From a phage, in the NCBI GenBank assembly GCA_020773975.1, contig GCA_020773975.1_3638.1: DNA of 64,000 nucleotides. One strand, written 5' to 3'. Positions 8,743 through 63,571 of this stretch are shown here, piece after piece. Below the pieces are notes generated by a model. That model saw only the letters and a list, made by a program, of their open reading frames with translations, ran no database searches and was not told where the DNA came from. A program made the position numbers and the translations under genes. Numbering within the stretch: position 1 is the first letter of the stretch; the number at the start of each line of letters is the position of its first letter.

Positions 8743-8749
8743 AAAAACC

Positions 8750-9031
8750 TCAAGAGAAAAACTCTTCTATAACTTCCCAAACCCTTTCCGAACCCCCTCC
8801 TGAAAGGATACTCCAAATAACCATATCTTGATAGCCTTTCTTACACACATCCACTTGTCGAAATGCTTTGTGGAAACCCTCTGGACAACCATATTCCACA
8901 GGGAGCATATCCACATTATCTTCGAAATATTTAAGTAGCAATTCCTCTTCCAAAGAGGGGTTGTTGCGAAGTTTCTCTTTGAGATTCTCAACAAGTTGTG
9001 CACCTGTTAACTTTTTGTTTGTCATGTCCAA
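8750..9031 (-). CDS. hypothetical protein
   Basis: ORF in leftward operon; preferred over the overlapping frame 8767-9003. Confidence 0.35.
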   Translation of the reverse strand: MDMTNKKLTGAQLVENLKEKLRNNPSLEEELLLKYFEDNVDMLPVEYGCPEGFHKAFRQVDVCKKGYQDMVIWSILSGGGSERVWEVIEEFFS

Positions 9032-9378: not shown

Positions 9379-9382
9379 GTTT

Positions 9383-9676
9383 CTATCCTTTATTTATATA
9401 TCTCTTCCAGTCAGAAACAATGTTAGATGCAAGCTGGTAAGTTCCGTTGGCATGTCCATCAGTTTTTGCTGCCGCTTTTACATATGGTAGGGATTGTTCG
9501 AGAGCATCCACAATCAAGGGACACATTGCAATAGCCAAAGCTAGATTCCCGTTTTCAGCGGTACAGATTGGGGAGTAGCTCTCCATTCCGTTTCCGTATT
9601 TCTCAAGACTACCTTTAACAATAACTTGGTCTTCACCAAACAAATCCTCATGATGTTCCCACATTTCTTCGATCAT
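9383..9676 (-). CDS. hypothetical protein
   Basis: ORF tightly packed in operon. Confidence 0.4.
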   Translation of the reverse strand: MIEEMWEHHEDLFGEDQVIVKGSLEKYGNGMESYSPICTAENGNLALAIAMCPLIVDALEQSLPYVKAAAKTDGHANGTYQLASNIVSDWKRYINKG

Positions 9677-9898
9677 CTAGTTGTTCCTCAATTTTGCCAT
9701 TGCATTATTAAATATTTTTTCGAGTTTCCTGTATTTAATCTTTTGTTTTATGCTTAACTTTTTTCTCTCTCCGGCAACCATTGCGCCATAATACTTAAAT
9801 AAAACAACACGTCTATTGCTTACTTTTAATACTTGGGATTCCCTTTTCCTTGGCAGGAGAAGGATTTTAGCTTTGCGATTTTTCAACTTTACCTCCAA
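9677..9898 (-). CDS. small basic protein
   Basis: Lys/Arg-rich 73-aa ORF. Confidence 0.3.
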   Translation of the reverse strand: MEVKLKNRKAKILLLPRKRESQVLKVSNRRVVLFKYYGAMVAGERKKLSIKQKIKYRKLEKIFNNAMAKLRNN

Positions 9899-10310
9899 TC
9901 ATCTTATCCAGTTTTCGCCACATATCCCACACACCACCATTACCTATTGTGTTTTTCGATGGAGTCACACAGGCGATAAATTCCAGATCAGTGCCCTTAT
10001 TCATAAGATATTCAGATACCAACCCTGAAGCGATCAGTTTTATATTTTCAAGGTCTTCTTCAAGCTCCTTAATACGAGCCTGTGCTTTTTCAATTTCTTC
10101 CTTATGTCTTTTGTATTCTTGAAAAGCGTGCCAAGATTGTCCTTTATGAACACTTTCACAAATGGCCTCTACTTGCTCTTTTGAGAGCACAGTGAGTGGT
10201 TGAGATGGGAAAATCATTATTTGTCCACTATCCCAATCGAATCCTGCATGTATAGATTGAACATCAACCGAAGGTGTTGCTCCAACAGTACCTGGGGAAT
10301 GAATAACCAT
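9867..10310 (-). CDS. hypothetical protein
   Basis: ORF; overlaps neighbour ends in another frame. Confidence 0.4.
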   Translation of the reverse strand: MVIHSPGTVGATPSVDVQSIHAGFDWDSGQIMIFPSQPLTVLSKEQVEAICESVHKGQSWHAFQEYKRHKEEIEKAQARIKELEEDLENIKLIASGLVSEYLMNKGTDLEFIACVTPSKNTIGNGGVWDMWRKLDKMIGGKVEKSQS

Positions 10311-10491
10311 CGTTAATTTTAATCAAAGGGAAGTCAGTAATCAAGACATGATTTAAACCAACGGCAGTAACAAGGTATTTCTGCTCTGGATCCCAAGACA
10401 ATTTAGACTTGTACAAACAACCTTGTCTAATTTTAAAATCTTCCACACACCCACCCTTCACAGTTGTGATCACGACATCCTTCAAAATCAT
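10264..10491 (-). CDS. hypothetical protein (possible fragment)
   Basis: Overlaps both neighbours by 47-59 nt in different frames. Confidence 0.25.
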   Translation of the reverse strand: MILKDVVITTVKGGCVEDFKIRQGCLYKSKLSWDPEQKYLVTAVGLNHVLITDFPLIKINDGYSFPRYCWSNTFG

Positions 10492-11068
10492 ATGGGCTGT
10501 ACTGCCAGGTTATTTTTCCGCAGTGCGGACAATTCCAGCGCACTTTCCCGCTTCGTGACCTCTTCCTTCTGTTCTGCTTTTTCAACCAATCAGGCATGAC
10601 CAAACCTGCGCCCTGAACCATTGTTCTGCGGTTAAAGTTATTGATATTGAACGTCCGGCGCTTTGCTGCATCAGCAATGGAAAATGGCAACCAAACTATT
10701 CCTGGTTCGTTTTTGTTGGCGACGCTAAAGATGGTCGCTTTACTGAAGTCATCTGTTGGCAATCCACCGTGTTGAAGCCAGTAAACATCGTTGCCGTTCC
10801 AGCTACCTTTTTTGTAGGCCACATACGCAGTGCAATCTGACTCAATCAGGCTTTCTGTAGGGATGTACTGGCAATCAACGTGCCACACAGCCATTGCATC
10901 CACACTATCAGCGCAAACAGGTTGATCGATATCTCGACCACAATTCCAGGCTTTTTGGGCTTCTTCCAGCGTGTAAACATGAGCGCGATCGATATCATAA
11001 CTGTAACCATTGCCGTTATGGCAATGGAATGAGGCGTTATTACCCACAGTTTCACGCAAGCACATCAT
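10433..11068 (-). CDS. Cys-rich hypothetical protein
   Basis: C-terminal CPHCG...C...C zinc-ribbon-like cluster; start placed at internal Met to avoid overlap. Confidence 0.4.
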   Translation of the reverse strand: MMCLRETVGNNASFHCHNGNGYSYDIDRAHVYTLEEAQKAWNCGRDIDQPVCADSVDAMAVWHVDCQYIPTESLIESDCTAYVAYKKGSWNGNDVYWLQHGGLPTDDFSKATIFSVANKNEPGIVWLPFSIADAAKRRTFNINNFNRRTMVQGAGLVMPDWLKKQNRRKRSRSGKVRWNCPHCGKITWQYSPYDFEGCRDHNCEGWVCGRF

Positions 11069-11082
11069 GTAAAAACGGTTGC

Positions 11083-11532
11083 TCACTGGTTGCCTCCGTT
11101 GCGAAGCTGTTCCGCACAATGCCGCAGGGCATCCGTAGCATCTTTAAGCGTAACCATCTCGTCATCATCCAGTCCTGCTCCCCTCGCATCCATGACAAAC
11201 GCTGCGCAAAGGTCGTTAAACACTTCAGCCCGTATTTCAGCCAGAAAAGCATCGGTGGCTGGGGTTTTGATATCATAAATTTCAGGAAGAATCTCTTCCC
11301 ATGTGACGATATCACCATTCAAATGCCAATCGGCAATCCCACTGGAGTTATCAGCAACATCGTGGACAGCTTTAATCGCTCTGTGCAGGGCTATATTCTC
11401 AGCAACCAATTCTGCACAACGAGTCTCCAGTTCTGAGATTTTCTTTTTATTATGGTATCCCTTTTCTAAAAGAGTTGCGCATTTACTACCTAGGCGTTTG
11501 ATTTCATTGGTGTACACTGATTTCTCAGTCAT
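11083..11532 (-). CDS. hypothetical protein
   Basis: ORF in GC-richer segment. Confidence 0.4.
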   Translation of the reverse strand: MTEKSVYTNEIKRLGSKCATLLEKGYHNKKKISELETRCAELVAENIALHRAIKAVHDVADNSSGIADWHLNGDIVTWEEILPEIYDIKTPATDAFLAEIRAEVFNDLCAAFVMDARGAGLDDDEMVTLKDATDALRHCAEQLRNGGNQ

Positions 11533-11752
11533 GGTTGGCTACCCCTTTCTTCAACAACTTGATGTTAGTTTTAAGTTCTGCAATTTGACACATAGCGTCA
11601 ATATTTGTGTCTTCTAACTTCTTAATTTCATCAAGAAGTGTCAATACAACCTCCGGTGTTACCATACTACGATAATCCGTCACCTCTTGATAAGTACCGC
11701 CATCTCTTGCTATCTCTGCTAACTTACGTAATTCTTGGTAGTCAATTTTCAT
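11525..11752 (-). CDS. hypothetical protein (prophage Ea22-like flavour)
   Basis: Short acidic coiled-coil ORF. Confidence 0.35.
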   Translation of the reverse strand: MKIDYQELRKLAEIARDGGTYQEVTDYRSMVTPEVVLTLLDEIKKLEDTNIDAMCQIAELKTNIKLLKKGVANHD

Positions 11753-12146
11753 AACTTGATAAGTCCTGCGTTGTTTTATTTACTACATCATATGCCTCTT
11801 TGAGCACCCAGTCAACAGCATCTTTCCATGCTCCGGTTTCGACTGGTGGATTCTCACGCTTAACCTGTTCATAGAAGCGCACTGCTTTAATCAATCCTTC
11901 TAAGGTTACAGGTGTGGTGTATAACGCCTGAATTTCGTAGTTTGGTCTGTCGTTACAATCCTCTTTTGTCGGTACATATTTCCAGTCACCAACCCACGGC
12001 TCCCCCTGAGAGTCCGTAACGCCTTTTTTCACGTAGCGATATCGCCATGCAACTGGTTGTTGGGTTGCTGCTTTAAGGCTTGGTGACGAAGATGGAAGCG
12101 CAACATTAGTCATTTCCGAGATGACAGGTTGATAACCATTGCTCAT
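11742..12146 (-). CDS. hypothetical protein
   Basis: ORF with PVAW motif shared with 12386-13048 and 61008-61418 products. Confidence 0.4.
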   Translation of the reverse strand: MSNGYQPVISEMTNVALPSSSPSLKAATQQPVAWRYRYVKKGVTDSQGEPWVGDWKYVPTKEDCNDRPNYEIQALYTTPVTLEGLIKAVRFYEQVKRENPPVETGAWKDAVDWVLKEAYDVVNKTTQDLSSYEN

Positions 12147-12321
12147 TTAAATCTCCTCCTGCCTCATATGCCACTTGTAACCAATACATAAATGTTTCAA
12201 TAGAAACACAACCACAATCCACATCAATCTGGTCATGTTGTTGTTCCAACCACTGCTGAAAACGTGATTTTTGAGTATCATTCTCTGGTTGTTCTTTTAT
12301 CATTATCACCCCCATCGGCAA
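12106..12321 (-). CDS. hypothetical protein
   Basis: 71-aa ORF. Confidence 0.3.
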   Translation of the reverse strand: MPMGVIMIKEQPENDTQKSRFQQWLEQQHDQIDVDCGCVSIETFMYWLQVAYEAGGDLNEQWLSTCHLGND

Positions 12322-12385
12322 ACTGAGTACACTGCAAAGGCTACAGCCATTACAACCCCTACCGTTGTGAATGCTTCAGGCCAAG

Positions 12386-13048
12386 TCATTGATTCATCCC
12401 CTTCTTTTTGAGCATAGCGGCACGACAGGCATTCCAGCCATCAACATAATCAAACGTATTGCTATCGTCTGGCTCGATTTCATCTGGTACTGCCAATGTC
12501 GGCTGGGCGGCAGCATTGGCAAAGGCTGCACGCAACCCTGTCTTAATCTCCTCTACCTCATCAGCACCTAGCGATGAATCTGACAGTGCATGATGGAATG
12601 CGTATGCCATGTCGTCGTTTACTGTTATCGGTTCCACTTTCTTTACTGTAAGTGTTGGCGGTACATGATACAACGGGATTACACGACGCGGGTCTGTACC
12701 TTTACCTGGTGGGTACGGCATTATCCAGCCTAAACCAATCTGATCAACATCCCGCAACTCCTCTTCGTCCGTCCATCCCACCGGTTCTGCTCTCAACTCC
12801 ACCTGCGCATTAGGGGAGGTGTAGAGTGGGATTCCTTTCCTCCCACCAGAAAATTCATTGCGAGCGTTATACTCACGACCATCTGCGTCCTCACACATCC
12901 ATGCTACAGGCTCTGTTTCCAGCACTGCCAGAGCAATTCGAGCCAGTTCTTGCGCTTCTTCTGCTGGCAGTACAACGTTGCCACCAAGTCCGTATGTTTC
13001 GCGCCATTGCTTGATTGTCAGCAGACGTTCTTTGGTAATAGTGGTCAT
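12386..13048 (-). CDS. hypothetical protein
   Basis: 220-aa ORF in GC-richer segment. Confidence 0.45.
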   Translation of the reverse strand: MTTITKERLLTIKQWRETYGLGGNVVLPAEEAQELARIALAVLETEPVAWMCEDADGREYNARNEFSGGRKGIPLYTSPNAQVELRAEPVGWTDEEELRDVDQIGLGWIMPYPPGKGTDPRRVIPLYHVPPTLTVKKVEPITVNDDMAYAFHHALSDSSLGADEVEEIKTGLRAAFANAAAQPTLAVPDEIEPDDSNTFDYVDGWNACRAAMLKKKGMNQ

Positions 13049-13050
13049 AA

Positions 13051-13242
13051 CTATTTCACCTTAATCTCAACATTTCTCACATCTAGCTCTACGGGGAGTT
13101 CTGACTTTCCGGTCAGTGCTAATGCAAGATTTTCTGGGGTAACAAGGACAGTTATTGTTTTTCCTCTCTCCAGACGAATAGCCATTCTTATCTTGTCATC
13201 ATCACCTGTGTTAGGTCGAGTAATTGATATTTGTCCGTTCAT
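13051..13242 (-). CDS. hypothetical protein
   Basis: Start moved to internal ATG (MNGQ...) which has AAGGATAAA upstream. Confidence 0.35.
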   Translation of the reverse strand: MNGQISITRPNTGDDDKIRMAIRLERGKTITVLVTPENLALALTGKSELPVELDVRNVEIKVK

Positions 13243-13274
13243 ATATTTATCCTTTGTTATTAATATGCCAATCC

Positions 13275-13400
13275 TTAACAAATAGTTATGTGAATGAAAG
13301 AAAGCAACCAAAGAATTGACTCAATAGCTGCCCAACCAATAACTGCACAAACAACACCAAGAAACAAGAAAAAACCAGTACTGGGCAAATTATTGAACAT
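13275..13400 (-). CDS. 41-aa hydrophobic peptide (small membrane protein)
   Basis: Not in the ORF track (<60 aa): RBS GGAGTGAGG then ATG; MFNNLPSTGFFLFLGVVCAVIGWAAIESILWLLSFIHITIC read by hand. Confidence 0.3.
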   Translation of the reverse strand: MFNNLPSTGFFLFLGVVCAVIGWAAIESILWLLSFIHITIC

Positions 13401-13642
13401 CCTCACTCCCTTTTTTGTTATTAACACGCTGTTGGAGGTCTTTTAGATGGTCAATATTAGAGCGAACATGCTTAAGTAGCTGCTCTTTTGTAAAGGTTTT
13501 CATGATTCCCCCTCATTGAACAGAATATCTCGTAATACAGGGACGCTTTTATCCATACTTGCTTTAAATTGTTTACTGTTCGCACTTGCCCATGTATACA
13601 CAACCATTTTAGCAGCGTCGCTCAAAGTTTCATACTTATTTC

Positions 13643-29607: not shown

Positions 29608-30642
29608 TCAAGACACCTCGTTAAGTTGTTCCATGTACCAACTACGGGCTTTATTTGTTGTAAATTTTGCCACGTCTTTCATAGAAAGAGAATTGGCTTC
29701 TAACACATCTGCTTCTTCTTTGTTGATATCGCGGTTAACCCATGCGATAAATGCCCCCAGAGATGCGATGTCCAATCCAATTTCTTGCAACCCTTGTCGT
29801 AAACGGTTCTCAGTAACTGCATACTCCACAAAATCTTTGATAGATTGCAGTTTCACAGGATCAACAGCAGCCAGGGTTTTCACTTTAGAAACAGAATGTT
29901 TTTGCCCTTTCACTTTAAACCAAAGTGCAGAAACATGTGCCAAGTGGCGATCTTTAGGTGTCCATACCACACCCTCACCAACACCAGATACGCCAAAATA
30001 TTTACCTACTGGACACTCTTTTTCCACACCTTCGGTAATCTGTGCAATTTCTGATTGCACTGTCTCTGGCATGTTAAAAGGAATATCCAGTTCCCACTTA
30101 CCAAAAGTTAAAATATTATAAATACGTTGTTCTGGTAATCCAATGCCAAGAATATCGTTTAAAGCTAACCATTTCCGATGGTCATTCTCTTTTCCTACTG
30201 CCACACGGAAAATAGTAAAGAAAGGCATGATTTCAGATACCGCAACACCTTTCTGGATACCTTTCCCTGCAAATTCCCCAGCGATTTCTACTGGGAACTT
30301 AAATTCAATACCACGATCTTCGCAGATCTGTTTGACTTGCTCCAACAGGCCTTTAGGGTCTTTTTCAACCATAAAGGCCATAAACCCATAATTATCTTCT
30401 TCCAGAGACAAAACGCGTTCTTTGGACTGGTATACAACCTCATTTTCAGAATTAAAGACTACACGGCAATTAGTCCCGTGAATTTTAACTGTTCCTACAT
30501 AAGGAATGAGATATTGGTCTGGAGAGGCAACCTTACGCTTTATATTGCCATTCTCATCACGACCATCATAAGTCAGACGGTCATTAACCGCTCGGATAAC
30601 ATTGCGAAATTGACTAGTGCTTGGGTACTTAGTTGCTTGCAT
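29608..30642 (-). CDS. RNA ligase, Rnl2 family
   Basis: Motif I KIHGTN; GEFAGKGIQKGV; EGVVW; FKVKGQKH. Confidence 0.8.
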   Translation of the reverse strand: MQATKYPSTSQFRNVIRAVNDRLTYDGRDENGNIKRKVASPDQYLIPYVGTVKIHGTNCRVVFNSENEVVYQSKERVLSLEEDNYGFMAFMVEKDPKGLLEQVKQICEDRGIEFKFPVEIAGEFAGKGIQKGVAVSEIMPFFTIFRVAVGKENDHRKWLALNDILGIGLPEQRIYNILTFGKWELDIPFNMPETVQSEIAQITEGVEKECPVGKYFGVSGVGEGVVWTPKDRHLAHVSALWFKVKGQKHSVSKVKTLAAVDPVKLQSIKDFVEYAVTENRLRQGLQEIGLDIASLGAFIAWVNRDINKEEADVLEANSLSMKDVAKFTTNKARSWYMEQLNEVS

Positions 30643-31171: not shown

Positions 31172-31780
31172 TCAGGATGCATGTTCTCTTTTGCCATCTG
31201 GGATCTCCTCTTCGTTTAAGACATAAATTGTCACATCACAATCATGGAGAACAGATTCTATCATAGTTTCTATGATTTTCCAATCCCCACCTGCTAGTCC
31301 AGCACCTATTTTTGGCAGCCCGATCTTATAATCAGACATAAAGCCATCTGTGTGCCTTTGCAAACAATCTCGCATTGCTGCTAAAGAATCGTAAAGGGCG
31401 TTATAATTCAGATCCCTCACACCCATTCTACGCCCATTATATCCGTATTGTGTGTACAGATTAAAACCCGCCAGCTTACCTTCGTTCATGACAGCCCAAG
31501 TATAACTGCCCAGTTTTGTTCGATCACCTTTCTCTGTCTTTAAATCTTCAGCATACATTTTTGGGAATGTATTCTTTATTTCTTTAGCAATTCCAGACCC
31601 CATGGTGCAAAATGTATTACAACCATGAGCTATCACATTAACATCCCTTTTAAGTGCTGCCTCTATTAAGCAACCAACTTTATACTTAAGCATTGTCTGA
31701 TACCTCTTCGCATTCGTATGGATAGATATCCAGTCTTTTCCCATTCCATTCGCAAGAGTAACACTCAAGAAAACTACCAT
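31172..31780 (-). CDS. macro-domain protein (ADP-ribose binding or hydrolysing)
   Basis: NVIAHGCN...GSGIAKEI and IGLPKIGAGLAGG resemble the macro-domain pocket motifs. Confidence 0.55.
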   Translation of the reverse strand: MVVFLSVTLANGMGKDWISIHTNAKRYQTMLKYKVGCLIEAALKRDVNVIAHGCNTFCTMGSGIAKEIKNTFPKMYAEDLKTEKGDRTKLGSYTWAVMNEGKLAGFNLYTQYGYNGRRMGVRDLNYNALYDSLAAMRDCLQRHTDGFMSDYKIGLPKIGAGLAGGDWKIIETMIESVLHDCDVTIYVLNEEEIPDGKREHAS

Positions 31781-32497: not shown

Positions 32498-33706
32498 TTA
32501 ATTTAAAATTGCATCTACATCTTTTGCAAAGTTCTTGTGATATTCAGTAATAATCTGCATGACAACAGGATACTTCTTAAGTAACTTCGCTGGCAGTCTG
32601 TCACGAAGGCCATCTAACAAAATACCCTTCCCTGTAGAACTGTCATTAATAAACATCATGAAGACAGATGATACAAAATCACGGTTGGAATGAGCATCAT
32701 CTTTACCAAAGTTATCATACAGATATTGCAAGAAATTGGCTGAGAAGTCAATAATCTGATCATCTGTGTAGTTGGTATTCTTCATAGCCTTACGTAGCCA
32801 GATGCAACCTTGTGATCCTAGCGTCCACAATACATCAGAGCTATCAGAGCCAGTGTGTTCCTTAATTGAACCATCCATTACTTTCTCAATGGGGACCATA
32901 TCAGCAACGCGAGTATGGTAATACCATAACTCTTTCATTAACGGCCCACCAATACACCCTTGCAAAGCAGCCATTGCAAGACGGGAAGTAAGATCACCAT
33001 CCTCATACGCATACAGAATATCACTTGCAGTAACCCAAGTTCGTGGTGTGGCATATGCAGGACTGTTAATCTCATACATGGCCTCGAAGTTTTCCAGTTT
33101 ATCGGGATTGGCCTGGATAAAACCAATTACTGATGGATGCACATTTTTACGCAACGCATAATCCTGCATCCACACAGAGGCATCGTAATCAAGTTCCACA
33201 ACAATAAAACGGTTAGCCAAAGGAGCTTCCATCATGGTCACTGCCGTACCATCACCAGGACGGTTCCCTGCCGCTGCAAAAACTGCACCTTTTGGAAAGG
33301 TGTACTTACCAATTTTATGATCCAAAACAATCTGGAAAGCTACTTTCTGTAAGTAGTTATCAGCATGTAAAAGTTCGTCAAGGAAAATAATACCTTCCCA
33401 ATCTGGGTCTTCTGGCCAGAAATCTGGTAGCGCATAGACTGTACGTGTTTTTCCATTATCGTCTGTTACAGGAATCTGTACACCTACTACGTCTGTCGGA
33501 TCTTTATCCGCAAGACGAAAATCAACGAGATTATCATCTCGTTCACCAAACATCTCATTGGCAACTTGCTTCATGACTTGACTCTTACCAAGCCCAGCAC
33601 CACCAAACATCATAAGTGCTTTGTTTGCCTTCTTACAAAATTTCATGAGGCTTGGAATATCACGGAGTGTAACACGATGATCTTCAAAAATATTTCTACT
33701 AGACAT
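32498..33706 (-). CDS. AAA+ ATPase, MoxR/AAA_5-like
   Basis: Walker A GGAGLGKS; Walker B IIFLDELLHA. Confidence 0.6.
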   Translation of the reverse strand: MSSRNIFEDHRVTLRDIPSLMKFCKKANKALMMFGGAGLGKSQVMKQVANEMFGERDDNLVDFRLADKDPTDVVGVQIPVTDDNGKTRTVYALPDFWPEDPDWEGIIFLDELLHADNYLQKVAFQIVLDHKIGKYTFPKGAVFAAAGNRPGDGTAVTMMEAPLANRFIVVELDYDASVWMQDYALRKNVHPSVIGFIQANPDKLENFEAMYEINSPAYATPRTWVTASDILYAYEDGDLTSRLAMAALQGCIGGPLMKELWYYHTRVADMVPIEKVMDGSIKEHTGSDSSDVLWTLGSQGCIWLRKAMKNTNYTDDQIIDFSANFLQYLYDNFGKDDAHSNRDFVSSVFMMFINDSSTGKGILLDGLRDRLPAKLLKKYPVVMQIITEYHKNFAKDVDAILN

Positions 33707-34488: not shown

Positions 34489-34704
34489 CTAATCCTCCCA
34501 TTTTATCCATAAAGGGTATTCTGCAACATGCACTTTCTTACCCTTTTTGTTAATAAAAGTATACTCAACAAACTTTGCTATGTAAAACCTATTGTAATCC
34601 TCTGTACCTTTAACAGGACAGTCTGTTTTCCTTCTCTCCACCCATTCTCTGTGGATCACCGCTTTGTTCTTTGGATCAAATGGATGTGGTTGATAAACAT
34701 TCAT
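34489..34704 (-). CDS. hypothetical protein
   Basis: ORF. Confidence 0.3.
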   Translation of the reverse strand: MNVYQPHPFDPKNKAVIHREWVERRKTDCPVKGTEDYNRFYIAKFVEYTFINKKGKKVHVAEYPLWIKWED

Positions 34705-35201
34705 TATTTCCCCTCGAATCTTTTTCTTGCATCAGCAAGTTTAAGATGCATTTCATGGTATTTCTTTAACCTTGCCAAATCCTTATCAGATAAGGATTTA
34801 AGACGTTTTACGTCCATATTGTCTTTTAAATCAGCGAGTTTTACACGAATCGCATCATAATTAGTACAGATGCCCTCAATGTACTCTTCTTCAGTCAGGC
34901 TCTGTTTCTTTGTTAGCAGAAGAACTGCATCTTTTACTCTGTTAGTGAACCCTAACATTACCAAATCGTAAGCTGTAACTTTAGTATCCTCAAGGATATC
35001 GTGAAGGACACCGATTGCCATTAGCTGTAAGTCATCATTACCAAGTTCATGCATCACCCTTAATGGGTGAAGAATGTATGGCATTCCACCACGATCTTTC
35101 TGCTTAAGATGGTTTTCAGAGGCCAACTTTACAGCTAAAGCCAACTCCTGATGGGGTCTTAAATCTTGCATATTACTGGGGACAGACTTCGATTGTACCA
35201 T
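34704..35201 (-). CDS. small alarmone hydrolase (SpoT/RelA-type HD domain)
   Basis: YILHPLRV...GVLHDILEDT matches the (p)ppGpp hydrolase HD motif. Confidence 0.7.
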   Translation of the reverse strand: MVQSKSVPSNMQDLRPHQELALAVKLASENHLKQKDRGGMPYILHPLRVMHELGNDDLQLMAIGVLHDILEDTKVTAYDLVMLGFTNRVKDAVLLLTKKQSLTEEEYIEGICTNYDAIRVKLADLKDNMDVKRLKSLSDKDLARLKKYHEMHLKLADARKRFEGK

Positions 35202-36019
35202 TTATATGTCTCTTCCATGTTAAAGGGTTTTATACCGATATTATCAAAATCTACAAGAGAATCAAGAAAAAATTCTCCTTTGTACCCAGCCATTTCTATC
35301 ATTGAGCGTTCCTCTTGGGTAGGGATCTCCCCCAAGATAAGCTCTTTTAGCTCCTTTTCTACAACACGATGGTACATTACTTCTTGGGTATTACACACCA
35401 AGTAGTAGTGCGATTTCTTATTCTCTACGTTTGGCGTGTTGGCTATCTTAATTGCAGCATGACCTACATAATCATACATCTTTGTTTGGTAAAACATTCC
35501 ATAACAACCCGCCAGAGAAAAGGATCCAAAACTGGAGTTAATCTCCCTGATGTGGAGAATATCTGGGTTTGTTCTGACATAGGAAGCCTTTATGGAAAAC
35601 ATATTACCATCCCAATGCCCCAATTGGGACAAAACAGACAGGAATTTTTGTGTTCGTGCAGACAACGATCCTGCTAAACACATTCCATAATTAAAGCCTT
35701 GGAAAGAAATTGTTATTTGCCCACAAGTAATATCATAGCTTGAAAACTCATGCGTTAAGTTTACGCTTGCCATGTAAGCACGCTCGTCAGCTTCAACATA
35801 ATATTTCCAGTAACATTTCCTATCCCGAGTATCAAAACACATAAGCACAGCATGTTTTATGAGTTCTATTAAAGGGTTTGGTTCATGGTGGCGACTTTCA
35901 ACTTCCCTTATAATGGCTTCACGGAATACATTAAAATCTATTTTCATAGATTTTGTGTGATACAGGTAGGCATCAAAGTAAGAAGAAATGTTTTCGTCAG
36001 GTATCTTTGTCATGGTCAA
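35159..36019 (-). CDS. hypothetical protein
   Basis: 286-aa ORF, first gene of the leftward block. Confidence 0.45.
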   Translation of the reverse strand: MTMTKIPDENISSYFDAYLYHTKSMKIDFNVFREAIIREVESRHHEPNPLIELIKHAVLMCFDTRDRKCYWKYYVEADERAYMASVNLTHEFSSYDITCGQITISFQGFNYGMCLAGSLSARTQKFLSVLSQLGHWDGNMFSIKASYVRTNPDILHIREINSSFGSFSLAGCYGMFYQTKMYDYVGHAAIKIANTPNVENKKSHYYLVCNTQEVMYHRVVEKELKELILGEIPTQEERSMIEMAGYKGEFFLDSLVDFDNIGIKPFNMEETYKWYNRSLSPVICKI

Positions 36020-36124
36020 ACTCCAAAAATATTTTCATTGGTTATGAGGAATGTACAGAACTAAAAAATCAAAGTCAACGCTTGACAAACTGGAAATTTG
36101 TGAGATACTACGAACACAAGTTAA

Positions 36125-36940
36125 GTGACAGAGATATTCTGTATGAACTGGAATGAAGAGTTTACAACCAAAGAGATAAGGTATCTCAAAACACGACTCT
36201 TTTTCAAAAAGAGGAATACCAAAGCGAGAGGTATAGAGTTTAATCTGACAGAAGATGACTGGTTTATGATGGGCAACGGATTACTTGGGAAAGGTGTTTG
36301 TGATTACACAGGCCTACCTTTTTCTGCAACACCTAATGACCCCCTCTACCCGTCTGTTGAACGAATAGATGACAAAAAAGGGTATGTTCGTGGAAACGTT
36401 TGTGTAGTCGGTAAGAGAGCAAACCAGTTAAAAGATTTTCTTGTAGACAAAAAGAAAGCTCTAACGATTGTAGATCCACTCGACATGGATATCGTCCAAG
36501 GAATGATGTTAAATATGTCAAAGGATCACTTGGAAAAGTTAAAACTTAAATACATACCTACGGAAACAGATATGAAAGAGACAGAGAACGTAATTATTGA
36601 TGAGCAGGTTGAAGAGATGAAAGAAAAATCTCTTCCTGACGATGTTGAAATTGCACTTGCATACGCAAACTACTGTAAAACATTTGCGGAAGCAGGTATG
36701 AATGTTAGCGTTACTTATGCACAATTTAAAGCTAAATATTCAAGAAACACCTGTTCTCTAACAGGGGAGAAGTTAACAAAAACACCAAAACCTATTCTCA
36801 TTATGGATTTAGATCTTGGGTTCGCAAAAGACAACTTTATTATTGTTTCTGAAAAGATGGAAACAGCATTAACACAACTCATGATCAATACGAAAATGAG
36901 TTTACCAAAAATTACAGCTATGCTGAACAAGGTGGTTTAA
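36125..36940 (+). CDS. HNH-family (HNH_3-like) endonuclease-like protein, two tandem domains
   Basis: CDYTGLPF...PSVERIDDKKGYVRGNVCVVGKRANQLK and a second degenerate copy. Confidence 0.45.
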   Translation: MTEIFCMNWNEEFTTKEIRYLKTRLFFKKRNTKARGIEFNLTEDDWFMMGNGLLGKGVCDYTGLPFSATPNDPLYPSVERIDDKKGYVRGNVCVVGKRANQLKDFLVDKKKALTIVDPLDMDIVQGMMLNMSKDHLEKLKLKYIPTETDMKETENVIIDEQVEEMKEKSLPDDVEIALAYANYCKTFAEAGMNVSVTYAQFKAKYSRNTCSLTGEKLTKTPKPILIMDLDLGFAKDNFIIVSEKMETALTQLMINTKMSLPKITAMLNKVV

Positions 36941-37444: not shown

Positions 37445-38881
37445 ATGCAAAAAGACGAACATGAAATGATTGCCAAGTTAGAGAAGGATGCTGTAAAAGT
37501 TATCCAATCGGCACGAATAGCTCTTTTAAAGTACAGACCATTTTACGGGACTTTGTTAAGTTCTCTACCCTTAGTTGCTAACTGGAAATGGTTGCCAACA
37601 GCAGCGACTGATCACAAAAACCTCTACTTCAACCCTGAGTTTATTATGGGTATGCCTGAAGAAAGGAAGAAGAAGGTTTTTGAGCGTGTGGATAATCACC
37701 CCACAATGACACAACAAGAAAAAGATGACTATAAAGACTATGTGAACGTATTTTATCGTAAGAAAACACCCAAAGAGGTTGTTGTTATTCTTATGCACGA
37801 GCTACGTCATATTACTAACGATCATTTATCCCGTGGAAAAGCATTTGATTCTAAAACCTACAACACAGCAGCAGATCATTATATTAACACGGATTTAGTG
37901 GTGTCTGATCTTGGGCCACGCTCCAGCCAGATGTGTTTCTTCCCAATGGGGAAACAGACAACCTTTGACAAAGGTAAAGAGTTTGGGTTTATGGCTTATT
38001 GCTACTGTGATTTTAATTTCCACGGTAAGACAGCGGAGGAGATTTACAGTCTCATAAACAAAGGCCAACCGTCTGTTGGTAAACCTATGGGCACACACAT
38101 AGGTGATTATGATCAAGACAGCAATATCCTAGGATATGAAGATCCTCACCCAGTGCCAAGCCAAGCAGAAAAAGATGATAATATGTCGTGGTCATCTGGT
38201 CTTATCGAGGCCGCGATGGAAGCAGCGGGAGGAGAGGGGCCGAAAGAGGTGCGTGACGTTATTGCAAGAATGCGTAAACCACACATAAATTATCTTCAGA
38301 TAATCAAACAGCGTATGCTTTCTCGGATCAAGTCTAACCTGACATACAGGAAACCATCTCGTAGGTCTGGATCTATGACACAGGCACTTCGGCAGTATGG
38401 AGCTATTGGAAAAAAACAGCATATTGTTTTACCAGGAAGGGAGTACGATAATACTATAGATATAGTTATTGGCTTCGATGTGTCTGGATCAATTTCGAAG
38501 GCGAATTTAGACAAAATCTTCGGAGAAATTGTAGGATTATGCCAGCTTTACCGCGTTTTTCGCGTGACATTGTTCTGTTGGTCAACAAAAGTCGGAGAGG
38601 TTAAAGTTTATACACATGATAATATCAAGGAAATGCTTGATTATAAAGTAAATTCTACGGGTGGGACACTTGCAGCATCGGCTTTTGAGTATATTGAAAA
38701 TAACATTTTTGATGCAAAAGACGTTATTATTTTTACAGACGGATATATAGAGGATTTAAGACACAAGAAAAAAGATTGGGGACGCAAATGGGATATTCTT
38801 TGGGTTATTTGTGGTCGCGGAAATAATAAATTTGTACCACCTTTCGGAAGGGCTGTAAATTTAGATGAACACGCAAAATAA
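37445..38881 (+). CDS. putative metallopeptidase (HExxH) fused to vWA domain
   Basis: LMHELRHI zincin-like motif; C-terminal MIDAS-like DVSGSIS. Confidence 0.55.
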   Translation: MQKDEHEMIAKLEKDAVKVIQSARIALLKYRPFYGTLLSSLPLVANWKWLPTAATDHKNLYFNPEFIMGMPEERKKKVFERVDNHPTMTQQEKDDYKDYVNVFYRKKTPKEVVVILMHELRHITNDHLSRGKAFDSKTYNTAADHYINTDLVVSDLGPRSSQMCFFPMGKQTTFDKGKEFGFMAYCYCDFNFHGKTAEEIYSLINKGQPSVGKPMGTHIGDYDQDSNILGYEDPHPVPSQAEKDDNMSWSSGLIEAAMEAAGGEGPKEVRDVIARMRKPHINYLQIIKQRMLSRIKSNLTYRKPSRRSGSMTQALRQYGAIGKKQHIVLPGREYDNTIDIVIGFDVSGSISKANLDKIFGEIVGLCQLYRVFRVTLFCWSTKVGEVKVYTHDNIKEMLDYKVNSTGGTLAASAFEYIENNIFDAKDVIIFTDGYIEDLRHKKKDWGRKWDILWVICGRGNNKFVPPFGRAVNLDEHAK

Positions 38882-39299: not shown

Positions 39300-39354
39300 A
39301 ATTTAACCACACAGGGAGGCTAACGCACGTAGTCTCCCATATGTCCCCATTTCA

Positions 39355-39378
39355 GGGACATGGGTATGTCCCTGTTTT
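39355..39378 (+). terminator. rho-independent terminator within a cluster of overlapping GGGACAT/ATGTCCC hairpins (39341-39385)
   Basis: GGGACAT-gggt-ATGTCCC followed by TGTTTTG. Confidence 0.55.
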
Positions 39379-50951: not shown

Positions 50952-51177
50952 GACACAATAACGCAGTAGTAACCCCTCCCCCTCACTCCTTACAGTCGCC
51001 CGGTATCGGGATAGCGTTATTATGTCGCTACGCGCCAACGCGTTAACAATTTTGCAAAGAAGCCTGCTTTGCAGGTTAAGCGCATTGCGCTTAATCGCGT
51101 AGCGACTATGTGAAATTATAACAGTTAAATTATTAATAAAATCTTGCAAAATTGTTAACCTACTGCGTTATTGTGTC
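50952..51177. repeat. nested inverted-repeat locus (three different perfect IR pairs)
   Basis: 18-bp pair 50952-50969 / 51160-51177; 11-bp pair 51024-51034 / 51096-51106; 16-bp pair 51042-51057 / 51144-51159; central hairpins. Confidence 0.7.
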
Positions 51178-52047
51178 CTGTATATAATTCGTTAAATTAA
51201 CCAAATTAATCCCCGATTATTACGCAGTAAATCACCTGCTTTTAACCCTGTTAATGTGCCACGTAGTGATCTGCTATCTTGCCCAGGGATAACCGCATGG
51301 CATGCGGTTAAATGCTGTTAAGTGCTTGAAATGCCAGATCAATTTGGTCACTGCGTGATTATGATTGCGACAATAATTTGCTATTTATTTGTTATAATTT
51401 GTTATAATTTGTTAAACACTCTTTTATCTTTTCTCTTACATTTTCGTTATATTTGATTTGTTATCGTTTTCCCTCATTTCGCTTCGTTATTGAAAACAAG
51501 AATTATTATCATTGATACGCCTTAACAGGCTGGCGGGTCTGTTAGTGGTCTGGCTCTCTGTGTGGTCATGTTGTTATTGGTTGTGATAGCTTGGTTTTAT
51601 TGTCTGGCCTGTTATTGTTAGCTTGCTTATTGTTGTGTGGTGTATGTATTAGTTAGCTAGTACATTAGCTGGTGCGCATAACGTGTATTATGTTAAATCA
51701 GGTGGCCCACAAGTAAGGTGGCTTGTCAATAACAATAAGTGCTATGTGCGGTAGTCTGGCCCATCAGTGTGCCCCTTTGTTGTGTGGTGCTCTCAGTGTG
51801 TGACCTGTCTGCTGTGTGCGCTGCGCCAAATCTCGAGCGGTTCTCGATCACAATAGCTGTAGGATATTTTCAAAACATCCGAATTTCCATCGACACCCCC
51901 AGCTCATCTGCCTGTCACCTCTGAGATAAAGCTGTAGATATTTTCACTCCTCACATCATGCACAAGTTAATACATGCAAGTCTTTACAGACAGGGGTGGG
52001 TGGTGTAAAATACCTGTGCCAACAGTACAAAACACAGAGGAGGTTTA

Positions 52048-53508
52048 GTGGCAAAACAGTTCTTTGACAAACATTACATGGAAACGCATTTTGTAGAGAA
52101 ACCTCTGCATCGCCTGAACTTTACAGATTTAGAAGGAATGAGGTTTGGCAAGATAACGGTGCACAAACTTAACAGAAGAGAGGATAAGTCTTTTGTGTGG
52201 TGGTGTACGTGTGATTGTAACCCATCCAGATATTTTATGGTTGTGCCTTACTCACTTAAAACAGGGGTGACAACATCTTGTGGTTGCAATTATAAAACTA
52301 ATGGAGGGAATATACATGAAACACTCCAAGAGTTTCAAAAGAAAGTTGGTGGTGATTGGGAGATTATCTCATACCAAGGTAGAAAGCACGATTGTGTTGC
52401 CAAATGTACTATGTGTGGGAGTATTGTCACCAAACAAGGTGGCTCATTTATCTGCGGTGTGACGTGCCATTGCACTGATAAAAGAATAAAGAGGCGTGAT
52501 GATATTTTGCATCTTGCGGGGTACAGTCTGATCAAAGAAGAGAAAGTTCAACAGCAGAATGGTGAATATATAATGCACTTGCGCTGTAAATCTTGTGGTG
52601 TTAAGAAACTGACGCGAAACACGGAGTTAAGGGATTTAAAGCCATGCCTGTGTAGAGGCGACCACACCAACAATGGGAAACCTTGCGCCATTTACCTGCT
52701 TTCACATAAAGATGGTAAGTATTGTAAGATTGGTAGGTCTTATAGCCCCTCCTCAAGATTACGTATGATTAATGGTTCTGGTGGCGACTTTATATTGGAG
52801 CATGTTTGGTGGACACCTAACTATCACTACGCATCTGTGCTGGAGACAACACTCCACAGGGAATTTTCTGAGCATCGCTTTGACGCTGGTGGTTTCGATG
52901 GGAGCACAGAGTGTTTCTACATAAAGCCTGACAAATTGGCAAAAGGAATATCTGAGATAGTCGCCAAGTTGGTTGGGGATTACAAACCTGAAGATGGGGT
53001 GTTGACAAAAGATGTGAAGATAAGGAATAACTACAAGAACAGCGGTATGATTGTGAAGTCTAGGAGTTATCACTTCAAAGAGTCAGATGTGTGTTTGTGG
53101 ATACCTTATAAAGGGTATCTCAGAAAGAAGAGATCCCCATTCTCCTCTTGGGAGATGGCAGAAGAGTGTCACTATTTAGCTGCAAATGTGCAGCCTTCCA
53201 AAAACTTAGATAGGTTTAAAATTTATGATGTGGATGGGGTTACTGACTCCATAGCAGGTTGGTCAAGGAGAACTGGAATCCCTGCTCAGACACTTACGTG
53301 GAGAATGCAACGCACAGGCATGACAATGAAAGAGGCGATTAATTATTGCAGACCAGACACTGTTATTTGGTGTGGCGGGAAAATGGTTAAGAAGAGAGAT
53401 CTTAAAAGCATTATCGGTGTTTCTTGGGAGTCGGTTTATACAGCATCCAGAAAAAGCAAGAAGTCCCCAGAACATATTATAGAAGAAATACTGAAAAGGG
53501 CCACTTAA
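52048..53508 (+). CDS. free-standing GIY-YIG/T5orf172-like homing endonuclease-like protein
   Basis: GTG start with RBS AGAGGAGG; Cys-rich N-terminal repeats; AIYLLSHKDGKYCKIGRS; C-terminal HTH-like IAGWSRRTGIPAQTLTWRMQ. Confidence 0.5.
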   Translation: MAKQFFDKHYMETHFVEKPLHRLNFTDLEGMRFGKITVHKLNRREDKSFVWWCTCDCNPSRYFMVVPYSLKTGVTTSCGCNYKTNGGNIHETLQEFQKKVGGDWEIISYQGRKHDCVAKCTMCGSIVTKQGGSFICGVTCHCTDKRIKRRDDILHLAGYSLIKEEKVQQQNGEYIMHLRCKSCGVKKLTRNTELRDLKPCLCRGDHTNNGKPCAIYLLSHKDGKYCKIGRSYSPSSRLRMINGSGGDFILEHVWWTPNYHYASVLETTLHREFSEHRFDAGGFDGSTECFYIKPDKLAKGISEIVAKLVGDYKPEDGVLTKDVKIRNNYKNSGMIVKSRSYHFKESDVCLWIPYKGYLRKKRSPFSSWEMAEECHYLAANVQPSKNLDRFKIYDVDGVTDSIAGWSRRTGIPAQTLTWRMQRTGMTMKEAINYCRPDTVIWCGGKMVKKRDLKSIIGVSWESVYTASRKSKKSPEHIIEEILKRAT

Positions 53509-53541
53509 GGCCCGTTGTGTTGTTGGTATGGGACACCCGAC

Positions 53542-59175: not shown

Positions 59176-60237
59176 TTAATCATTCATCTTATCCCAACAC
59201 ATTTGTTGTGCTGTCATCAAAACATCGGCAGCAAAGTTAAGATCTGTTGTTTTCGGTAAATGCGTGTTCTTGTACAGAGTGTTACGAATATAATCATCCT
59301 TCTCTTCTGCCCAAGCCAAGAGCTTCTCCAAAGACCATGCGCCATTCCTGATTGCAAGAAGCTCCTGAGCATCAGGTCTTTTTACTAAGACTTTCCCTTC
59401 CGTCAGGATTTCTTCCGCTTGACGCATCAGCCTAACCAAGTGCATACCATGCTTTGAATCGAAGCCATACTTTTCTTCTAACTCATGACGTGCTGGGTTT
59501 CTGTTTTCAACCCATGTCCAGTAGTTCTTATGCTTTTCCTTTGCTTGTTTATGCTCATCTGCCAGATATTTAACGATTAAAATTGGCTTACGTTTCTTAT
59601 CTTCGTCAGAGAACTGCTCGTATGGAACTTTACGAATAGAACCATCAGAGTTAAACAAACCAGCATTGTCGCGTGTTCCGATTACACCATAGATATTATC
59701 ACCCATGGGTAAAAAGACACACAACTTGTTAAGATCATCCAACATTTTCTGGAAGTCTTTGTGTTTTGTAAGATTATCATCCATCCACGAGTGTGTCAAG
59801 CGCATGAACTCTTTTTGTGTTGGTTGCTCTTTAGGCTGCGGGTTATTAATCCATTTATTATGGCCTTTGATACGCTTCAGTTGCGCCATCGCATACCCAG
59901 AAAAAGTAAAAGCAACTTTACTGGATAGGAGTTTTGGCGCTTGCTCGCGTAGGTACTCGTAAACATCTGAAGTTTGCAGAATGTCACTTCTATCAACAAA
60001 CATAAGCTCGATGATGTTTGGGTTCATATCAACGAACAACTTCATGTAGTTTGTTAGCTCATACAGCTTACCATCCTCTTCATCAATAAGAGTCATTTCT
60101 CTGTCAACGAAAAACGGGGTAAGAATGCTTTTAGGCTCTGCACAATAAATTCCGCGAATATCCACATCGGATGTTGGTAAGTTAGTTCCATAGGCAATGC
60201 TACCACTGTAGCAGCGCATTAGTTCTAGTTTCTTCAT
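59176..60237 (-). CDS. Pol-beta superfamily nucleotidyltransferase
   Basis: GSIAYGTNLPTSDVDIRG (GS-x9-SDxD) NTase signature. Confidence 0.5.
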   Translation of the reverse strand: MKKLELMRCYSGSIAYGTNLPTSDVDIRGIYCAEPKSILTPFFVDREMTLIDEEDGKLYELTNYMKLFVDMNPNIIELMFVDRSDILQTSDVYEYLREQAPKLLSSKVAFTFSGYAMAQLKRIKGHNKWINNPQPKEQPTQKEFMRLTHSWMDDNLTKHKDFQKMLDDLNKLCVFLPMGDNIYGVIGTRDNAGLFNSDGSIRKVPYEQFSDEDKKRKPILIVKYLADEHKQAKEKHKNYWTWVENRNPARHELEEKYGFDSKHGMHLVRLMRQAEEILTEGKVLVKRPDAQELLAIRNGAWSLEKLLAWAEEKDDYIRNTLYKNTHLPKTTDLNFAADVLMTAQQMCWDKMND

Positions 60238-61007: not shown

Positions 61008-61418
61008 TTACTCACCTTTCAGCTTAAAACTTTTCAATGTTTTGATAAAGTTTTTCTCTGCTGGTGTGTAAGTGTGAACGAAACCTGTTTCTTCACAGGT
61101 GTAGGTATCATTAACCTCCATTGCGTGTGGAGGGATAAATGCACCATCAGGAACAGACTTATATTCCGGGTTGTAGATAAATTCCGGCAGTACAACAGCT
61201 ACAGCAGTCATTGCTCCGTTCAAGGCTTTCTTTTCTTCACGCCACCACGCTACTGGGTAAGTCTCTAAAGACATTGCCTGGGTAAGAAAATCTTCAAGCA
61301 CGGACTGATAACCGCCATTCAAAACAATAATGGTCTTATCTTCTTCTTTCCAGCATTTCAGCCAATGGTGTGCAGTGATCTGCTCTGGTGTATATGCTTC
61401 ACCACTATGCAAAACCAT
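61008..61418 (-). CDS. hypothetical protein
   Basis: ORF. Confidence 0.4.
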   Translation of the reverse strand: MVLHSGEAYTPEQITAHHWLKCWKEEDKTIIVLNGGYQSVLEDFLTQAMSLETYPVAWWREEKKALNGAMTAVAVVLPEFIYNPEYKSVPDGAFIPPHAMEVNDTYTCEETGFVHTYTPAEKNFIKTLKSFKLKGE

Positions 61419-62057: not shown

Positions 62058-63302
62058 TTAGAATAACATATCTCTGCTGATTGCTTTACGAATAGCATCA
62101 ATACGGGCTACTCGCACAGCTTCACCAATCTCTTTACCCTTCTTACCCTTTTCCAGAAGGGGTTTTGTTATAGCTTTAGAATCAACTTTTGTCATAGCGT
62201 CGTAGGCTTCCAACAAAAAATGACCTTGAAGATAAGGTTTATGTCTAAAATCACCACCTCTTCCTTTAGCATCACAATAACACGCATCTGCAAGTGTGTA
62301 AACCTTCATTTTCTGGTCAGCTTGTCCAGCAGCTTCAAATATTTTCATGATGCTTTTTGGTTTCAAACCGTTGTTACCATCTCTGGGAGAGATGGTGTGC
62401 ACTTTTGTGTGATTTTCTGCAACATATTTTGCCGTGTCACGATAGATATTATAAATCTTCAACCTTTCACACAAGGATTGGATAACATCTACCCCAGCTT
62501 TCTCATGACCATGAAGATTACCATTGTCCTTGTAAGTTATAGCTTTGCCAAAATCATGGCACAGCACAGCAAACTTGGTCAGTGGATCAGCTTCTAATTC
62601 ATCAGCAACCCGTAACGCTAGAATTGTATGGGTGTAAGCATCCCCCTCTGGGTGATGTTCTTTAGGTTGTTGCACACGACGTAGGGCTTCCAGTTCAGGA
62701 AGTTCGCCAATACGTCCCATATTGACAGCAAAAGACCTGAAATAACCACTCTTTAAGGCTTTCAACATTTCCTTCCATTTACGATAGGCGCTTATTTCTG
62801 CCAAAGAGTGTCGGTTGTCATAAGCCAGTTTAAAAGTTTCTGGATGGATATGCCATTCTTCCCCAAGCTGGGCTTTAAATCTAAACAGGCGTAGAATACG
62901 TAATGGATCTTCAATAAACGCCTCCGATGTATGACGTAATGTTTTAAGTCCTAAGTCAACCTGACCACCAAAAGGATCAATAATCTCACCACTGTCAACA
63001 TCCATCGCCATGGAGTTGATGGTAAGATCTCTACGTGCCAAATCCTCTTCCAGAGTTACATCTGGACTAAAGCATACCTCAAATCCTTTATGGCCTTCGC
63101 CTGTTTTTCTTTCTGTGCGTGCAAGAGCGTACTCTTCTTTTGTTTCTGGGTGAAGATAAACTGGAAAAGATGCGCCAACTTGTGTGAACCCTCTTTTCAG
63201 CATCTCTTCATGCGTAGCACCAACAACCACATAATCACGGTCTGATATTTCACGACCTAACAATTTATCTCTTACTGCGCCACCTACCAAGTATACCTTC
63301 AT
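62058..63302 (-). CDS. cca: tRNA nucleotidyltransferase (class II CCA-adding enzyme) with HD domain
   Basis: MKVYLVGGAVRDKLLGR...DRD head domain; FPVYLHPETKEEYALARTERK; HD motif HHPEGDAYTHT...CHDFGK; near-colinear with E. coli Cca from memory. Confidence 0.85.
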   Translation of the reverse strand: MKVYLVGGAVRDKLLGREISDRDYVVVGATHEEMLKRGFTQVGASFPVYLHPETKEEYALARTERKTGEGHKGFEVCFSPDVTLEEDLARRDLTINSMAMDVDSGEIIDPFGGQVDLGLKTLRHTSEAFIEDPLRILRLFRFKAQLGEEWHIHPETFKLAYDNRHSLAEISAYRKWKEMLKALKSGYFRSFAVNMGRIGELPELEALRRVQQPKEHHPEGDAYTHTILALRVADELEADPLTKFAVLCHDFGKAITYKDNGNLHGHEKAGVDVIQSLCERLKIYNIYRDTAKYVAENHTKVHTISPRDGNNGLKPKSIMKIFEAAGQADQKMKVYTLADACYCDAKGRGGDFRHKPYLQGHFLLEAYDAMTKVDSKAITKPLLEKGKKGKEIGEAVRVARIDAIRKAISRDMLF

Positions 63303-63571
63303 TTCTTCGCCCACGTATTCATATAATTAACAATATCTTTTACGGTTCTCTTTCCGTCCAGTGGATAAACCATGTCATCGCTCATCCCACCGTGTTTTAG
63401 CATTGCTACCAGTCTAGTATATACCTCTTTTGGTCTTTTGCAAGTTCTTTTCTTCCATTTATGACCGTCTGGGAAGTACTCCTTATCTTCAAGAGAGATA
63501 TGAAGGATGTCCCCTATAAACTCTTTAGCCTGTGTGCTGTAAAGTGGACGGTGGAATATGTAGAATTTCAT
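63299..63571 (-). CDS. hypothetical protein
   Basis: Start at internal ATG (MKFYIFHRP...); 4-nt overlap with cca start. Confidence 0.35.
   Translation of the reverse strand: MKFYIFHRPLYSTQAKEFIGDILHISLEDKEYFPDGHKWKKRTCKRPKEVYTRLVAMLKHGGMSDDMVYPLDGKRTVKDIVNYMNTWAKK

Follow-up and report, generated by a model that had tools for sequence, protein, structure and literature searches.

Stand-alone small alarmone hydrolases (SAHs) encoded by bacteriophages have been linked to bacterial defence by Jimmy et al. (PNAS 2020, PMC7229694), who assayed two such enzymes, a PbcSpo member from PVP-SE1 and a PaSpo member from SSU5, both Salmonella phages. Each of them neutralised all five toxic small alarmone synthetases (toxSAS) tested in E. 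coli, namely CapRel, PhRel2, FaRel2, PhRel and FaRel (Table 1 of that paper for PVP-SE1), and the authors proposed that incoming phages could evade alarmone-mediated defence by encoding hydrolases. Four of the five neutralised toxins make no alarmones and pyrophosphorylate the CCA ends of tRNA, a modification that SAHs reverse and that the SSU5 enzyme is stated to remove (Kurata et al.). CapRelSJ46, found in E. coli prophages, is a tRNA-pyrophosphorylating anti-phage system. In this work we describe a gene for an SAH in a 64,000-nucleotide stretch of phage DNA (NCBI GenBank assembly GCA_020773975.1, contig GCA_020773975.1_3638.1; hereafter the window), which is about 96% identical to Av-05, a lytic Escherichia phage of the genus Avunavirus (Vequintavirinae) with E. 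coli O157:H7 as host. The gene was delimited by open reading frame (ORF), profile and structure searches (34704..35201 including the stop codon, minus strand) and encodes a protein of 165 aa. We are highly confident that it is a functional SAH of the Aph1/PbcSpo type and, with more reserve, favour its action as an adenosine-3'-pyrophosphate hydrolase serving in counter-defence.

The closest characterised relative of the protein is Aph1, adenosine 3'-pyrophosphohydrolase 1, from Bacteroides caccae (PDB 7SMG), a (p)ppApp-specific enzyme reported to be a homotetramer (Ahmad et al., PNAS 2023, PMC10083569). Whereas Aph1 belongs to a toxin-immunity cluster of a temperate phage (MuF-Apk2, Tis1, Aph1), the gene of the window stands alone in a lytic phage. 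The Aph1 paper (PMC10083569) mentions neither tRNA, lytic phages nor PbcSpo. The present analysis connects the work on phage SAHs (Jimmy et al., 2020) with that on the Aph family (Ahmad et al., 2023), neither of which cites the other on this point, and the link between them is one that we infer.

The hydrolase ORF begins with ATG, has a Shine-Dalgarno-like element (GGAAGAG) 8 nt 5' of this codon, and is packed tightly within a leftward string of genes, overlapping its neighbours at both ends. A preliminary description, made from the letters of the window, had called the product a SpoT-type hydrolase of (p)ppGpp without synthetase domain, on account of the motifs YILHPLRV (residues 42-49) and GVLHDILEDT (residues 64-73). 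The ORF and both motifs are present exactly as claimed, and Pfam, TIGRFAM and the AlphaFold2 (AF2) model agree on one 165-aa domain lacking a synthetase part. The PHROG profile phrog_990 ('metal-dependent phosphohydrolase') matched with E=7e-55. TIGR00691 (spoT_relA) matched with E=7e-14, the match being confined to profile positions 1-120 of 687, which correspond to the hydrolase part. Pfam HD_4 (PF13328) gave 16.5 bits, below the gathering score of 27.2, and Pfam HD was likewise sub-threshold. A precomputed PF13328 match is present in many close homologues (50-60% identical), and the low score is an issue of model sensitivity and no evidence against membership of the RelA/SpoT-homologue (RSH) superfamily. 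Classification as a generic HD protein, as Pfam alone would have it, was superseded by the PDB, TIGRFAM and PHROG results.

In the PDB, the best sequence match was 7SMG (phmmer, E=1e-25, residues 21-153, the alignment reaching Aph1 residue 139), while RelSeq, S. aureus Rel, B. subtilis Rel, SpoT and MESH1 matched only at 1e-7 to 1e-5. The protein is 41% identical to Aph1 overall and 60% identical over a 30-aa C-terminal region (pairwise E=2e-11); the C-terminal ~53 residues of Aph1 (Y90-E143) were used by Ahmad et al. (2023, PMC10083569) to separate Aph from ppGpp hydrolases. The AF2 monomer model, built from 59 sequences (pLDDT 92.4, pTM 0.87), consists of a single helical domain of eight main helices and a turn of four residues, with a disordered N-terminus (residues 1-15) and without an additional helix at the C-terminus. 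By this model the hydrolase has the compact eight-helix topology of Aph1, which is without helix 0 and helix 9 of ppGpp hydrolases (Ahmad et al., PMC10083569). It differs from Aph1 in the disordered N-terminal extension of ~15 residues and in a last helix of greater length. In Foldseek the four 7SMG chains ranked first (TM 0.90-0.93, normalised to Aph1; root-mean-square deviation, rmsd, 1.0-1.5 Å), and all top matches were SAH or Rel hydrolase domains, in which the Rel/SpoT hydrolase domains, MESH1, PaSAH and RelH scored lower (TM ~0.55-0.7, rmsd >3 Å; for the last three, TM ~0.65 and rmsd >3.5 Å). SpoT/Rel hydrolase domains and MESH1 share with the protein the HD superfamily fold as well as the metal-binding and ED catalytic residues, but they have extra helices and a guanine-binding Arg where the protein has Asp36; the protein also has R133. 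Because Aph1 is closest in both sequence and structure and five of its six signature residues are kept, we class the protein within the RSH hydrolases as Aph1-like and not as 'SpoT-type'. Profiles, catalytic residues and structure matches bear out the broader claim of a stand-alone RSH hydrolase in a lytic phage; the SpoT-type (p)ppGpp label gives way to a much closer relationship with the (p)ppApp-specific Aph1.

The catalytic residues were examined in an alignment of 59 homologues with 44-96% identity. All 59 sequences carry H45, H67, D68, D72, D124, N128, D36, R133 and Y148; E71 and K147 are each found in 58 of them, and D130 in 51. All the codons concerned lie on the minus strand. The His45 codon (35067..35069), within the HP of YILHPLRV, specifies the first metal ligand and aligns with the corresponding His of Aph1 and RelSeq. 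Codons 67-72 (34986..35003; H-D-I-L-E-D) encode the metal-binding HD and the catalytic ED dyads, and codons 124-133 (34803..34832; D-L-K-D-N-M-D-V-K-R) the metal ligand D124, the ribose-contacting N128 (Aph1 N114), D130 (Aph1 D116) and R133 (Aph1 R119). All metal ligands (H45, H67, D68, D124) and the E71-D72 dyad are present, and sequence and model together predict a catalytically competent single-domain RSH HD pyrophosphohydrolase.

The Aph signature was defined as D24, R96, D116, R119, K133 and Y134 (Ahmad et al., PMC10083569); the chain numbering of 7SMG in our alignment agrees with that of the paper (D24-K25-A26). The equivalent residues are D36, G110, D130, R133, K147 and Y148. Five of the six are kept, including both experimentally validated specificity determinants, D36 and R133, and codons 147-148 (34758..34763; K-Y) correspond to the pyrophosphate-contacting pair K133/Y134. 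Asp36 (codon at 35094..35096) is an Arg in ppGpp hydrolases and represents the predicted determinant of adenine over guanine; RelSeq has Arg-Lys-Ser where the hydrolase has Asp36-Arg37-Gly38. In Aph1, D24 stands in place of the Arg that stacks on guanine in Rel, R119 takes up the room that the guanine carbonyl would need, and the D24R/R119A double mutant gains ppGpp hydrolysis (PMC10083569). A preference of the hydrolase for adenosine substrates over ppGpp is likely from these residues.

These residues bear directly on the possibility that the enzyme is a (p)ppGpp hydrolase which blunts the host stringent response, so that ppGpp made by RelA/SpoT would be degraded and transcription, translation and nucleotide supply of the host kept in a growth-like state that favours the phage. 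We regard this as improbable. It is in keeping with membership of the RSH hydrolase superfamily, and the records of sister phages and several other GenBank records name homologues guanosine-3',5'-bis(diphosphate) 3'-pyrophosphohydrolase, but these names are automatic annotation. Other phage attacks on ppGpp signalling are known, by the MazG-like Atd1 and by T7 Gp8. Atd1 resembles the present case as a phage nucleotide pyrophosphohydrolase serving as an anti-defence factor (Ho et al., bioRxiv 10.1101/2022.06.09.495361) and differs from it in its MazG instead of HD fold and in its substrate, ppGpp; membership of one identical family is ruled out by the MazG-like nature of Atd1. ATfaRel, a member of PbcSpo, was reported to degrade both ppGpp and ppApp, and two of the twelve Aph homologues purified by Ahmad et al. 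(PMC10083569) had modest ppGpp activity; against this, Aph1 itself showed no detectable ppGpp hydrolysis, ten of the twelve were ppApp-specific and all twelve hydrolysed ppApp efficiently. The two residues that exclude ppGpp in Aph1 have invariant counterparts here, and Rel, SpoT and MESH1 are far weaker matches in sequence and structure. Because of the closeness to Aph1 and the retention of D36 and R133, blunting of the stringent response is the weaker of the two functions offered by the preliminary description, the other one being detoxification of toxSAS products.

That second function has already been demonstrated for a close relative. Over 97% of the query protein, PVP-SE1 gp220 shows 62.5% identity, and the gene order is common to both phages: an ORF labelled 'TMK', the SAH gene, small ORFs, a MoxR ATPase gene, a macro/phosphatase gene, a methyltransferase gene and a gene for an Rnl2-type ligase. 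By sequence and gene order the hydrolase gene is the syntenic orthologue of gp220. Homologues were found at 396 places in 394 phage records, PVP-SE1 being present as two records, so there is no second copy in PVP-SE1 and gp220 is its only hydrolase homologue. The two proteins have in common all catalytic and signature residues and the subfamily Vequintavirinae of their phages. They differ in genus (Seunavirus versus Avunavirus), host and C-terminal tail, and the partner ORF upstream is only ~26% identical. In vivo toxin-neutralisation data exist for the PVP-SE1 SAH, while the protein of the window is known from sequence and model. The SSU5 SAH is likewise a stand-alone phage enzyme with the same proposed role, which neutralises all tested toxSAS and removes the tRNA 3'-pyrophosphate installed by FaRel2, but it belongs to PaSpo and not PbcSpo, being set apart in the classification of Jimmy et al. 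Alarmones stand as substrates from the earlier proposal, which had overlooked pyrophosphorylated tRNA CCA ends, although four of the five neutralised toxins act there. The idea itself is not new: it was put forward and in part tested in 2020, and ~390 phage records carry annotated homologues. A 2025 Pakpunavirus paper already treats its copy as an SAH with uncertain preference for G or A. A phage SAH as counter-defence is published knowledge, and the finding presented here is confirmatory and would not surprise a specialist.

In the mechanism that we propose, the gene would be expressed from the leftward non-structural gene string at a presumed point of lytic infection. A metal ion on H45, H67, D68 and D124, together with the E71-D72 dyad, would remove the 3'-pyrophosphate from adenosine nucleotides, converting pApp, ppApp and pppApp into AMP, ADP and ATP plus pyrophosphate. 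The same chemistry would very probably apply to the 3'-pyrophosphorylated terminal A76 of tRNA; the pyrophosphorylated tRNA end is chemically a 5'-esterified pApp. A base pocket formed by D36, D130 and R133 would favour adenine over guanine, which would suit the invariant A76. In this way the action of tRNA pyrophosphorylases of the CapRel, PhRel or FaRel2 type, from host or prophage, would be reversed and (p)ppApp synthetases of the FaRel or Tas1/Apk type, again from host or prophage, would be countered. ATP pools as well as tRNA charging and translation would then last long enough for the phage to finish. That counter-defence against toxSAS is the biological role we hold with slightly better than even confidence.

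Several points weigh against an adenosine-3'-pyrophosphate hydrolase serving in counter-defence. We infer that gp220 is the 'PVP-SE1 SAH' of Jimmy et al. on the basis that it is the sole RSH hydrolase homologue in PVP-SE1, and neutralisation of the toxins was measured in that study by plasmid over-expression, outside infection (PMC7229694). A literature search for the plating phenotype, in the form of toxSAS sensitivity, of a phage without its SAH found none. The R96 equivalent is G110, at a position that varies across the 59 homologues; R96 is the only signature residue not near the Aph1 active site (PMC10083569). Strict adenine specificity is not guaranteed, because ATfaRel and two of the twelve Aph homologues act on ppGpp. 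Finally, promoter-like matches near the hydrolase gene are no more numerous than in shuffled sequence, and promoter evidence for early expression was dropped for this reason.

The Av-05 copy of the hydrolase, annotated 'metal-dependent phosphohydrolase', is 98.2% identical. The two differ by six synonymous and three non-synonymous changes, giving a ratio of non-synonymous to synonymous rates (dN/dS) of ~0.13, which is consistent with a functional gene under purifying selection. The 394 phage records, obtained by tblastn, comprise Seunavirus and Avunavirus (60-68% identity), Certrevirus-like phages of Cronobacter and Pectobacterium, T4-like Aeromonas phages, Pseudomonas Pakpunavirus, jumbo phages and temperate pneumococcal phages; at least 4895 database proteins are homologous at E<=1e-5. 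In the sister phages vB_EcoM_TH18, 24-2-1, 18-1-2 and 19-1-2 (locus L003 2223..2534), comparison of records identified an in-frame deletion of 186 bp that corresponds to codons 82-143 (34773..34958, minus strand). It lies between two GATTTGG microhomologies and removes D124, N128, D130 and R133, and the 103-aa remnant is still annotated in GenBank as a ppGpp pyrophosphohydrolase. As judged from the residues removed, the deletion would be inactivating and the gene accessory. Its occurrence in sister phages implies that the gene is dispensable for propagation on laboratory hosts, and such loss is as expected of a conditionally useful counter-defence gene.

Two further explanations deserve consideration. 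First, the physiological substrate might be another 3'-phosphorylated metabolite, such as NADPH, pAp/PAPS or a defence signalling nucleotide, in analogy to MESH1 and to the promiscuity of an orphan Xanthomonas SAH. Crystal structures of MESH1 with NADPH and with PAPS are known (Foldseek matches 5vxa and 9chy), the orphan bacterial SAH is described as metabolically promiscuous (PMC9765508), and most bacterial Aph homologues are unlinked to any toxin (PMC10083569). The tight conservation of the Aph1 signature in the 59 homologues, the efficient hydrolysis of ppApp by every purified Aph homologue and the rescue from toxSAS toxicity by the orthologue (PMC7229694) leave this explanation with a slim chance. 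Second, an immunity (antitoxin) enzyme directed at the phage's own (p)ppApp synthetase toxin, with the 286-aa upstream ORF (35159..36019, minus strand) as toxin or partner, would have a precedent in Aph1, which protects against the MuF-fused Apk2 encoded just upstream, and would agree with the 43-nt overlap of this ORF with the hydrolase start and with its constant position next to and upstream of the SAH gene in Avunavirus and Seunavirus, but it is scarcely credible, because no RelA_SpoT synthetase domain (PF04607) was found in the 38 window ORFs of at least 130 aa and 22 further Av-05 ORFs (~18 kb of Av-05 lying outside the scan), the upstream ORF has no similarity to anything in Pfam, NCBIfam, PDB or PADLOC, synthetases included, the PVP-SE1 enzyme was called stand-alone after a genome scan with RSH hidden Markov models (Jimmy et al., PMC7229694), the upstream ORF occurs in only 62 phage records compared with 394 for the hydrolase family, and the sister phages have lost the hydrolase active site with the upstream ORF intact, which would be lethal were that ORF an unopposed toxin.

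The genes that accompany the hydrolase gene were considered with regard to the counter-defence function. As the preliminary description had noted, a macro domain, a MoxR-like ATPase and an Rnl2-like ligase are all encoded in the leftward string together with the hydrolase. The macro domain protein is DarG-like by profile and PADLOC searches (31172..31780), the MoxR-like AAA+ ATPase lies at 32498..33706 and the Rnl2-like RNA ligase at 29608..30642, all on the minus strand. The same strand encodes a CCA-adding-enzyme-like protein with PolyA_pol head, RNA-binding and HD domains (62058..63314) and RlaP, an 'RNA repair pathway' nucleotidyltransferase of the pol-beta type (59176..60237). Together with the SAH, the CCA-adding-like protein, RlaP, the Rnl2-like ligase and the macro domain look like a toolkit for RNA/tRNA repair or anti-defence. 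The accumulation of RNA-end and anti-defence enzymes in the window accords with counter-defence and is no proof of it. The hydrolase resembles no catalogued defence-system component in PADLOC, and a search of the window for tRNA genes found none. An 'Av05 phage NTase' that counteracts TIR-STING was purified by Ho et al. (bioRxiv 10.1101/2022.06.09.495361) and may match one of the nucleotidyltransferases of the window. We tentatively raise a more far-reaching possibility, in which the in vivo substrate would be A76 of tRNA, with a pocket tuned to the CCA end, and the SAH would represent one arm of a phage tRNA/RNA-end repair kit (SAH, CCA-adding enzyme, Rnl2-like ligase, RlaP and DarG-like macro domain, all encoded in one non-structural region) that lets Avunavirus and Seunavirus escape from CapRel-type and other RNA-targeting abortive infection; the upstream ORF might then be a second, binding-type inhibitor, comparable to Tis1 beside Aph1. 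This possibility seems to us doubtful.

If counter-defence is the true function, the hydrolase would help to decide which strains with toxSAS of the CapRel or FaRel type lie within the host range of rV5-like therapeutic phages. We predict adenosine specificity for the SAHs of lytic phages; this would be in keeping with tRNA-A76 as substrate and speaks against the label 'ppGpp pyrophosphohydrolase' that is common in databases. The deletion phages (TH18, 24-2-1 and relatives) are natural negative controls that offer a ready-made comparison. To the published work the present analysis adds a more precise prediction of the substrate, corrects the annotation in databases and supplies a series of natural loss-of-function variants.

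The upstream ORF is confined to Avunavirus and Seunavirus. Its product is 26% identical to PVP-SE1 gp219, compared with 62% for the SAH, and dN/dS relative to Av-05 is ~0.5. By these comparisons it appears to be a conserved, fast-evolving neighbour of the hydrolase gene. Even a profile search found only eight homologues, and the AF2 model (pLDDT 45.9) was too poor for a structure search. The RefSeq label 'thymidylate kinase', whose source is PHROG 10920 only, was rejected, as it has no profile support and no P-loop motif was seen. Assignment as a toxin, a kinase or a partner was likewise set aside for want of a match in Pfam, NCBIfam, PDB or PADLOC to back it. Its product could act as partner to the hydrolase or take part in an arms race.

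Downstream of the hydrolase gene lies an ORF for a 71-aa DUF7202 protein (34489..34704, minus strand; Pfam E=1.5e-36), which is under strong purifying selection (dN/dS ~0.07 versus Av-05). The two genes share a TAATG stop/start overlap, through which the DUF7202 ORF would be translationally coupled to the hydrolase. Between divergent genes, the intergenic region 36020-36124 contains matches that resemble sigma-70 promoters. On the divergent arms around this region are the gene of the MoxR-like ATPase and that of a DUF2201 metallopeptidase-plus-VWA protein (37445..38881, plus strand), which look like the MoxR-VWA pair of rV5-like phages.

One of the 22 further Av-05 ORFs has a weak Pfam match to the peptidyl-tRNA hydrolase PTH2 (E=0.0016). 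Our guess is that this is the 165-aa 'hydrolase' ORF near the CCA-adding enzyme (locus L005 54..551; Av-05 36054..36551; window ~61008..61418); if the match is real, it would add another tRNA-related enzyme to that region. An ORF of 486 aa with a T5orf172/MUG113 (GIY-YIG-like) domain (52048..53508, plus strand) lies in a part (~51057-53541) without megablast match to the compared Av-05 stretches and might represent the insertion of a mobile nuclease. Up to ~39362 the window runs collinear with Av-05 60050-102827, and thereafter with Av-05 13595-39036. About 31.7 kb of Av-05 (102828-120938 and 1-13594) are absent at the junction, or the genomes are arranged differently. The Av-05 alignments overlap there by 29 bp (39334..39362), and a short repeat at this site may have mediated the difference.

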